64,000 bases of DNA from Longimicrobiales bacterium (GTDB lineage Bacteria > Gemmatimonadota > Gemmatimonadetes > Longimicrobiales > Gaopeijiaceae): the NCBI GenBank assembly GCA_965204735.1, contig OZ242008.1:3360001-3424000 (forward strand). Reading direction: 5' to 3'. The notes beneath the pieces are model-generated. The model searched no databases. It saw nothing but the letters and a program-made list of their open reading frames with translations, and was not told the origin of the DNA. Both the position numbers and the translations under genes were made by a program. Within the stretch, counting starts at the first letter, position 1; the number at the start of each line of letters is the position of its first letter. Positions 24,040 through 27,000 of the stretch are shown here, piece after piece.

Positions 24040-27000
24040 CTGTCTTCCATCGACGAGTCCAGCATCGAGCAAGCCGCACTGGAGTGGCTTGCCCACTCCG
24101 GCTGGACCACTGCGCACGGTCCCGCCTTGGCCCCCGGTGGTTCCGCGACGGAGCGCTCGGCGTACTCCGATGTCGTGCTGGCCTCCCGCCTCCAGGACGC
24201 AGTCTTCCGCCTCAACCCGGACTTGCCGGGCGCAACCCACGAAGACGCCCTCCGCAAGCTGACCCGCCCCGCCGGTCCCACCCTCGAAACCCGCAACCGC
24301 GCCTTCCACCGGATGCTGGTCGACGGCATCCCCGTCGAGTACCGCGACGCCGACGGCCGAATCCGCGGCGACCACGCCCGAGTCCTCGACTTCGATCGCC
24401 CCGCCAGCAACGACTGGCTGGCCGTCAACCAGTTTACCGTCGTCGAAGGCAAGCACACGCGCCGCCTGGACATCGTGCTCTTCGTCAACGGACTCCCGCT
24501 GGGCGTGATCGAGCTCAAGCATCCCAGCGACCCCGACGCCACCGTCCACACCGCTTGGTACCAGCTCCGGACCTACAAGGCCGAGCTGCCGACGCTCTTC
24601 GCCATGAACGAGCTCATGGGCGTGTCGGACGGCGTCGAGGCCCGGTTCGGCACACTCACCGGCGGCTGGGAGTGGTTCAAGCGGTGGCGCACCGTCGCCG
24701 GGGACACGGAAGCGAACCCGTCGGCGGTCCAGCTTCAAGTCGCGATCGAGGGGCTGTGCGCGCCCGAACACCTGCTGGCCATGATCCGGGACTTCGTCGT
24801 CTTCGAGGACGACGGAAGCGGGGAGCTGGCCAAGAAGATCGCGGGGTACCACCAGTATCACGCCGTTCAAGTGGCGGTCGGCGAGACCCTACGGGCAACC
24901 CAAATGCAGGCCCAAGACGAGGCCCCGCCCGCGCGGCCGTCCCGCCCCGTCGTCGTCCCGCCCGACCCCCGAACCCGCTGGGTCACGACTGCGCCGCTGG
25001 TCCCGCTCAAGGCCGCGGCGGGGGCGTTCGGCGACCCGCAGCACTTTCCGGCGGACGACTTCAAGTGGGCGAAGGTTCGCCCGCGACGCCCGCTCCGGCG
25101 GGGCATGTTCGTGGCCCAGGTCGTCGGGCACTCCATGGAGCCCCGTATCCCCGACAGCGCGTGGTGCCTCTTCGCCGCGCCGGTCGAAGGCACGCGCCAG
25201 GGCAAGACGGTGCTGGTCGAGCTGCAAGACGAGATCGACCCGGAGACCGGCGAGCGCTACACCGTCAAGCGGTACGAGAGCAAGAAGGCCCCGGAAGGCG
25301 GCGCTGACGACGCCTGGCGTCACGTCCGCGTCGTGCTGAGGCCCCGCAACCCCCGGTTCCGGCCGATCGTCCTCTCGCCCGAGCACGAGGGGCAGGTCCG
25401 GGTCGTCGCCGAGCTGGTGGAGGTGCTGGACCGCCACGCCCTGGACACCGCTCCCAAGCCGCCGCCCCCCGGCGACCGCCGCGTCGGCGTGGTGTGGCAC
25501 ACGCAGGGCTCCGGCAAGAGTCTGACGATGGCGTTCTACGCGGGGCGGATCGTCCGCGAGCCGGCCATGAAGAACCCGACGCTGGTCGTCCTCACCGACC
25601 GCAACGACCTGGACGAGCAGCTCTTCGCCACCTTCTCGCGGTGCAAGGACCTGCTGCGCCAGCCGCCGGAGCAGGCCAGCGACCGGGCCGACCTGCGCAG
25701 GAAGCTGGACCGGGAGGCCGGCGGCGTCGTCTTCACCACGATCCAGAAGTTCTTTCCCGAGCAGAAGGGCGACCGCCATCCGCCGCTGTCGAGGCGCCGC
25801 AACATTGTCGTGATTGCCGACGAGGCCCATCGCAGCCAGTACGACTTCATCGACGGCTTCGCGGCGCACATGCGCGACGCCCTGCCGGCCGCGTCGTTCA
25901 TCGGCTTCACCGGTACGCCCATCGAGCAGACCGACCGCAACACGCGGCACGTCTTCGGCGACCACATCAGCGTCTACGACATCCAGCGCGCCGTGGAGGA
26001 CGGCGCCACCGTGCCGATCTACTACGAGAGCCGGCTGGTCCAGCTGGCCTTGGACGAAGACGAGCGGCCCCGGATCGACCCGCAGTTCGAAGAGGTCACC
26101 GAGGGCGAGGAGACGGCCCGCAAGGACAAGCTGCGGGTGCGCTGGGCGCAGTTGGAGGCCGTCGTCGGGACCGACAAGCGGCTGGAGATGGTAGCGGACG
26201 ACTTGGTGCGCCACTTCGAGCAGCGGTGCGAAGCGCTGGAGGGCAAGGCGATGGTCGTGTGCATGAGCCGCCGCATCTGCGTGGACCTGTACGACAAGAT
26301 CGTGGCGAAGCGCCCCGATTGGCACGGGGAGGAAGACGGTCAGGGCGCGATCAAGGTGGTCATGACCGGCTCGGCCTCCGATCCGCCGGAGTGGCAACGG
26401 CACATCCGCAGCAAGGGGCGGCGGGAGGCGATGGCCAAGCGGTTCCGCGACCCGGCCGACCCGTTCCGAGTCGTGCTCGTGCGTGACATGTGGCTCACCG
26501 GCTTCGACGCCCCGTCGCTCCACACCATGTACGTGGACAAGCCCATGCGGGGCCACGGCCTGATGCAGGCGATCGCCCGAGTGAACCGCGTCTTCCGCGA
26601 CAAGCCCGGCGGCGTGGTGGTGGACTACCTGGGATTTGCGCCCCAGCTGAAGGAGGCGCTGGCCACCTACGCGACCAGCGGCGGCAAGGGGCGCCCGACC
26701 GTCGATCAGGACGCCGCCGTGGACGCGCTGCGCAAGCACTACGAGGTGTGCTGCGGCATCTTCCACGGCTTCGACCGGTCCCCGTGGGCCGAGGGCGCGC
26801 CCGCCCAGCGCCTGGCGCTTCTGCCCGCCGCCCAGGAGCACGTCCTGGCCCAGGAGAACGGGAAGGACCGGCTGGCCGACGCCGTGGACGCCCTGTCGAA
26901 GGCGTTCGCCCTGGCCGTTCCCCACGACTACGCCCTGGGCATCCGCGCCGACGTCGCCTTCTTCCAGACCGTGCGCGACTCCCTGGCCAAGCGCGCGCCC

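Follow-up and report, generated by a model that had tools for sequence, protein, structure and literature searches.

How restriction enzymes spare the damaged or newly repaired chromosome of their own cell is partly understood, and the locus analyzed here raises the question of what a self-cleaving protease of the LexA type would do inside one of them. The hsdR gene concerned lies in a stretch of 64,000 nucleotides of a Longimicrobiales contig (hereafter the window, to which all positions refer). An earlier note on this DNA had read from it a LexA/UmuD-like S24 peptidase between the nuclease and the translocase of HsdR, and had proposed that its cleavage would separate the two, either as a switch that alleviates restriction or as a way to release a free nuclease. 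Restriction by Type I systems is known to be turned down once DNA is damaged, and in EcoKI this happens through ClpXP acting on HsdR (PMC3874165, PMC4231737). According to PMC4231737, EcoKI HsdR is recognized by ClpXP while translocating, through a degron not found yet, the alleviation signal does not act in trans, and Simons et al. regard alleviation as specific to motors and, for EcoKI, not as a general SOS signal.

The hsdR gene and its surroundings

The product of hsdR scored 556 bits against TIGR00348 (cut-off 284.6) and 1051 bits against PADLOC REase_I (features in Table 1). Its start codon is probably a non-canonical CTG (24040–24042), which aligns with the initial Met or Val of homologs and was read identically in contigs from the sequencing runs X1, X2, and X6, while no clear Shine-Dalgarno sequence was seen upstream. 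With a CTG start, this copy may be weakly expressed; no RNA dataset is among the sequencing runs listed as containing the sequence. When set beside HindI-like HsdRs (PF11867, TIGR00348; solved relative EcoR124I HsdR), the nuclease, the SF2 motor, and the C-terminal domain are intact. The nuclease residues D144, E158-x-K160, and Q175xxxY179 are invariant across 74 aligned sequences, and the SF2 translocase motifs (Walker [18 protein letters not shown]) are present. What sets the protein apart from these relatives is a protease domain of 165 aa, housed in the loop that joins the helix YHQYHAV..ETLRA, which we take to be the Q-motif, to Walker A; the loop of the relatives is ~160 aa shorter. The conserved Gln of the Q-motif would bind the adenine of ATP.

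Table 1 Features of the restriction-modification locus and of the HsdR protein (positions in the window)
Feature	Position	Strand	Evidence or remark
hsdM, likely cognate methyltransferase	12102..13727	+	N6_Mtase + HsdM_N
hsdS with N-terminal nucleotidyltransferase domain	14134..15567	+	Methylase_S + Polbeta; PADLOC Specificity_I
AbiP2-type reverse transcriptase, directly 3' of hsdS, in a low-GC stretch	15649–17199		PADLOC E 2.9e-175
Decayed ~90% copy of hsdR 24659–25611	17837..18359	+	Without Ala-Gly segment and Lys segment
EruA-like NACHT protein inside the R-M cluster	18461–22618	-	778 bits, under the cut-off of 1000
PDC-S01 AAA_14/DUF4143 gene inside the R-M cluster	22627–23862	-	
hsdR, HindI-type Type I restriction subunit, 1213 aa	24040..27681	+	TIGR00348, PADLOC REase_I, N-terminus alignment
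PD-(D/E)xK nuclease domain of HsdR	24052..24672	+	HSDR_N E 4.8e-41; residues invariant in alignment
Presumed Q-motif helix YHQYHAV..ETLRA, with which motor domain 1 begins, 5' of the insert	24847..24897	+	SWI2_SNF2 model, EcoR124I alignment
S24 (LexA/cI/UmuD-type) autopeptidase domain in motor loop, Pro-rich linkers on both sides	24967..25428	+	PF00717, AlphaFold, Foldseek, VIA-align
LKAAA, candidate ClpX tag at the C-terminus that cleavage is predicted to create	25006..25020	+	xAA in 37/37 insert-bearing HsdRs; putative function
Ala327-Gly328, predicted scissile bond	25018..25023	+	A 121/121, G 120/121
Ser365, predicted nucleophile (GxSM)	25132..25134	+	121/121
Lys410, predicted general base (TVK)	25267..25269	+	121/121
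Remaining SF2 translocase of HsdR	25465..26679	+	Pfam SWI2_SNF2, ResIII, T1R_D3; Walker A 25507, DEAH 25819
HindI-type C-terminal domain of HsdR	26677..27657	+	PF11867 E 6.9e-130
ClpP-like SDH serine protease, directly after hsdR	27918–28799	-	
Second decayed ~90% hsdR copy, Ala-Gly to Ser part of the insert	29066..29264	+	

As in other Type I R-M systems, hsdM and hsdS share the island with the insert-bearing hsdR, and orthologs of hsdM (72–83% identity) lie upstream of insert-bearing hsdR genes in the loci L006, L007, L009, and L012. The fusion of HsdS to an N-terminal minimal nucleotidyltransferase recurs in L006, and a distant homolog (27%) of the ClpP-like SDH protease is found near hsdR in L007. 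Both decayed hsdR copies centre on the S24 insert, the larger one (17837–18359) adjoining a NACHT and AAA cargo block between hsdS and hsdR. Past hsdR, a tandem 1.4-kb duplication (85–91% identity) at 29761–32436 involves a gene with a lipoprotein-like N-terminus, and the defence genes at 32472–41186 include a HEC-01A-like ATPase, an MT-A70 methyltransferase, AlbA_2 + HATPase, DUF488, a DEDDh PDC-S48, and a PD-T4-4A-like ATPase. The closest named homologs come from Longimicrobiales MAGs and several of the sequencing runs containing the sequence are sponge metagenomes, so that the host is likely a sponge-associated member of the Gemmatimonadota.

Position and fold of the insert

The in-frame insertion of ~165 aa described in the earlier note is real. 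Across the 136 HindI-type HsdRs having both anchor motifs, the spacing from the Q-motif to Walker A is bimodal, with 39–53 aa in 99 proteins and 202–246 aa in 37, and the insert-less HsdRs share ~80% identity with the query in the motor. Judged by this comparison of sequences it is a true insertion, since the insert-less relatives have the short spacing. An assembly artefact was ruled out, as the junctions are spanned by contigs of two runs: a contig of run X1 (possibly the source sample) covers 24570–25435 with zero differences, and contigs of run X4 cover 24405–25269 and 25246–25857. Its location had been misplaced, for the insert does not lie between the nuclease and the translocase but within motor domain 1, past the Q-motif helix and ahead of Walker A. 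In all three insert-less relatives scanned, the Pfam SWI2_SNF2 model starts at the HQ helix (residues 271–273), which aligns with RPYQ of EcoR124I, immediately before the Walker A strand; the insert therefore occupies a variable loop of the first motor domain. The idea that cleavage severs the nuclease from the motor has to be amended in the same sense, as the predicted cut falls inside the motor, after the Q-motif helix.

The S24 identity proposed for the insert is borne out by both profile and structure. Scanned alone against Pfam Peptidase_S24, the insert scored above the cut-off (27.2 bits vs. 23.3, E 3.4e-6); within the whole HsdR the same region reached 21.2 bits, under the 23.3 cut-off, and homologs of the insert reach 59 bits. 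An AlphaFold model built from 74 sequences (pLDDT 75) folds as S24, with LexA, lambda cI, and UmuD' as the best Foldseek matches (E 1.7e-5 to LexA). The VIA-align comparison gave a Z of 11.9 for LexA (rmsd 3.4, 126 residues aligned) and of 10.9 for lambda cI, the leading values being 11.9, 11.4, and 10.9, and those from rank 17 onward ≤ 3.2. Confidence in the model is lowest at the predicted cleavage loop (pLDDT < 50 at model residues 21–29). A sequence search of the PDB with the insert as a single sequence returned no match, and the insert profile gave weak LexA matches only (E 0.55–1.1). An intein was ruled out, the insert being S24 by profile and fold.

With the LexA/cI/UmuD autopeptidases (MEROPS S24, PF00717), the insert shares the fold, the Ala-Gly site, the GxSM serine, the TVK lysine, and their order, and with LexA also the Ala-Ala preceding the scissile bond. 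In contrast to LexA and cI, it has no DNA-binding HTH and is embedded in a restriction motor of 1213 aa; a Pfam scan gave no HTH family match anywhere in HsdR, and the insert resembles the C-terminal domain of LexA/cI, not a repressor. It is also ~40 residues longer than the Pfam S24 model, and its Ala-Gly-to-Ser spacing is 38, compared with 33–37 in LexA-type proteins of the carrier genomes.

Conservation and spread of the S24 subfamily

The Ala-Gly, the Ser of GHSMEP, and the Lys of YTVKRY lie exactly where they had been read, their order agrees with the S24 family by profile, fold, and conservation, and the survey of HsdR homologs found all three elements kept in 37 of 37 insert-bearing proteins. 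The 121-sequence counts of Table 1 refer to 120 homologs and the query. For the wider subfamily, we used representatives at 50% identity (149 domain matches, of which 30 were set aside as not covering all three sites): the remaining 119 all have the Ser and the Lys, 116 have Ala at P1 and 115 Gly at P1', while over all 149 matches the Ser column holds a different residue in three and the Lys column an Arg in one. At P2, 117 of the 119 have Ala. In 15 carrier genomes, a P2 Ala was found in 20/20 subfamily members against 19/29 other S24 proteins, a comparison among kin that are not independent and with 17 further S24 matches without an assignable site excluded. The P2 Ala is thus not demanded by the fold. 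The dN/dS values of the insert (0.23–0.26) are close to those of the motor (0.19–0.26) in four of five pairs, in which the insert is by this estimate under purifying selection like the motor; the closest pair (L006) has 0.56 for the insert vs. 0.25 for the motor.

The homolog search with the insert region returned 1980 proteins among 6750 candidates. The best 120 of these comprise 37 HsdRs with an internal S24, 25 HsdRs of another clade with a C-terminal one, and 58 Type ISP specificity-domain proteins, the domain being at or near the C-terminus of another host enzyme in 83 of the 120. A Pfam scan of 44 of 80 genome loci and 95 of 150 representatives, many of them S24-only fragments, added Eco57I/MmeI-type IIG enzymes, Type III Res, McrC/LlaJI, YprA-type DEAD/MZB helicases, Schlafen AlbA_2, SLFN-g3 helicases, PLD, and HNH as further partners. 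HindI-type HsdR was also found with a C-terminal version, and five HTH repressors belong to the same subfamily. Where representatives reach the end of the domain, S24 is followed by ≤ 60 residues in 122 of 132, and no recognized nuclease was seen downstream in the other 10; with the partner enzyme upstream of the scissile bond, it is the partner that would therefore receive the new C-terminus. A conserved ~150-aa domain without a Pfam match lies 3' of S24 in the ISP-like P0063, P0087, P0126, P0144, P0146, L042, and L082.

On a tree of 162 S24 domains, the 13 partner labels require 30 changes; the 38 internal inserts come together in a single group, with weak support (81). Across the tree of HsdR motors the insert occurs patchily (11 changes, two or more of them forced), a pattern compatible with one gain and later loss or recombination. 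Uncommon in the phylum (7/301 genomes), the subfamily looks mainly chromosomal in the collections searched, in which it was met at four loci in viral contigs, as one weak match in annotated phages, and as one match in plasmids. The two other Type I HsdRs of the host genome are without the insert. The same genome has a second S24 copy, with Ala-Gly, Ser, and Lys intact, at the C-terminus of a 1994-aa DEAD/MZB helicase-nuclease (G000:C1:762540-768524). This partner is like the YprA-family helicase-nucleases of ARMADA/Druantia, for which Bell et al. (10.1101/2025.09.15.676423, main text) do not name S24, LexA, or a peptidase.

A possible restriction-alleviation switch, its rivals, and its meaning

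Cleavage of LexA at Ala84-Gly85, stimulated by RecA-ssDNA, uncovers residues that lead to its degradation (PMC9578287), and LexA-like proteins conceal ClpXP degrons beside their cleavage site (PMC5742171). RecA* binding, self-cleavage, ClpXP degradation, and the loss of restriction are carried over to HsdR by analogy with this biology. A RecA-ssDNA filament meeting the insert would prompt self-cleavage at Ala327-Gly328, giving an N-fragment of 327 aa (36 kDa), whose last residues are [10 protein letters not shown] and which holds the nuclease together with the Q-motif helix, and a motor fragment of 886 aa (100 kDa) beginning GAFGD, with S24 still attached. The LKAAA end of the former is a predicted ClpX tag that would lead to destruction by ClpXP, and the latter would be expected to be disabled too, its Q-motif helix having left with the N-fragment. 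Restriction would be off after DNA damage and HsdM/HsdS would go on methylating; as a cut chromosome would give rise to RecA filaments, the module would exert negative feedback on self-restriction. The outcome proposed would be the same as in the alleviation of EcoKI by ClpXP, namely HsdR destroyed after damage and methylation spared, whereas here RecA* would be the trigger and the tag would be made by self-cleavage.

What the different architectures have in common bears on this reading. S24 stays on the motor after internal cleavage, and therefore the removal of an inhibitor cannot be the common purpose; the C-terminal forms separate no nuclease from a motor, and therefore such separation cannot be the general purpose either. 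An upstream fragment that would end in xAA-COOH is common to all architectures, which points to a ClpX tag, and this end may be likened to the ClpX tags of LexA and ssrA. According to PMC10862746, Ala-Ala at the terminus dominates among the ClpXP tags of E. coli but does not suffice alone, and it forms the strongest tag class when accompanied by an upstream Leu; 39% of the Ala-Ala-ended tags in the E. coli screen were weak, and the consensus has Leu third from the end. The predicted LKAAA fits the Ala-Ala and the first-position Leu of this consensus, without the Leu third from the end. Present in the host genome are clpX, recA, and lexA, as well as a tmRNA whose tag ends in LAA. We thus retain from the earlier note the restriction-alleviation switch, as the likeliest reading, and give up nuclease/motor separation as its general purpose (83 of the best 120 being C-terminal); the release of a free nuclease is a weaker alternative. 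That RecA*-triggered self-cleavage followed by ClpXP destruction makes the domain a portable restriction-alleviation switch is a proposal in which we have moderate confidence. With somewhat less conviction, we suggest that a dedicated S24 subfamily on Type I, ISP, IIG, III, and IV enzymes, YprA helicases, and Schlafens could serve as a RecA-sensing, self-cleaving, ClpXP-tagging SOS off-switch without a transcriptional step.

Several observations count against the off-switch, among them the low confidence at the cleavage loop, the weakness of many Ala-Ala-ended tags, the higher dN/dS of the insert in the closest pair, and the CTG start. Most close HsdRs (99/136) and the two other Type I HsdRs of the host genome do without the insert, and the Ala-Ala may be inherited, given that HTH repressors of the same subfamily carry it too. 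Degradation of the single-chain Type ISP/IIG enzymes (58 of the best 120) would take the methyltransferase with it, a less tidy fit to alleviation, and the presence of S24 on motor-less nucleases sits against the motor-specific alleviation argued by Simons et al. An unlikely reading, if still the foremost of the rivals, is that in vivo cleavage is rare or absent and the domain works as a docking or oligomerization module, attaching the enzyme to RecA filaments or pairing two HsdRs. S24 domains do dimerize and bind RecA filaments (1kca, 8trg, and 8gmu are among the fold matches), and the subfamily is longer than the LexA domain and has invariant non-catalytic residues such as G384, R386, and H428; a pure scaffold would however be expected to lose the Ser, the Lys, and the Ala-Gly, all kept in ~97% of representatives. 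A further reading, to which we give slightly less credit, is that cleavage inactivates by dismantling alone, through loss of the nuclease with the Q-motif helix (or of a dimerizing tail), and that ClpXP merely clears up. The predicted cut inside motor domain 1 speaks for it, as does the dimerization mediated by the C-terminal domain of LexA (PMC9578287), and the loss of a dimer tail could halt cutting by ISP/IIG enzymes yet spare methylation. Dismantling would nevertheless require a separate explanation per architecture, and leaves the near-invariant P2 Ala unexplained.

Cleavage might instead activate, as in the conversion of UmuD to UmuD', with RecA filaments formed in phage infection or damage unleashing the nuclease for an abortive defence. 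The same chemistry activates UmuD (PMC9578287), and for partners such as Schlafen AlbA_2, HNH, PLD, and YprA-helicase nucleases the sensing of damage is plausible. We nonetheless judge this reading improbable, a shade more so than dismantling: the internal form keeps S24 on the motor fragment and so sheds no inhibitor, a single domain would hardly inhibit ten unrelated folds from varied positions, and the freed fragment would carry a ClpX-type tag at its end. Patchiness over the HsdR tree (two or more of the 11 changes being forced), occurrence in just 7/301 genomes of the phylum, and the decayed copies within the window would suit a domain that is selfish or a tolerated passenger and has no part in regulation, a reading which we consider very improbable given purifying selection resembling that of the motor, the lack of a mobility enzyme, and repeated fusion to defence nucleases.

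Both parts, S24 and HsdR, are known, and automatic annotations already carry the Pfam S24 match, some labelling such proteins LexA. The combination of S24 in HsdR, or of S24 fused to restriction enzymes in general, was not found described in the literature searched, a search that left preprint supplements and most subscription papers outside its scope. The main texts of PMC11090510 (CoCoNuT), 10.1101/2025.09.30.679545 (modularity), and PMC12707154 (a 2025 R-M review) do not mention S24/LexA, and the term matches in PMC5714182 and 10.1101/2022.05.11.491447 are unrelated. As read from its sequence, the insert-bearing HsdR would offer a defined trigger, bond, and tag for the sparing of the chromosome. 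If the restriction-alleviation switch is true, it would tie the cutting of phage DNA directly to the signal of DNA damage, and would give a ready-made damage-inducible degradation cassette, usable terminally or internally. It would also be a new level at which autoimmunity is controlled, common to many unrelated defence nucleases, and a vulnerability open to phages that induce RecA filaments.
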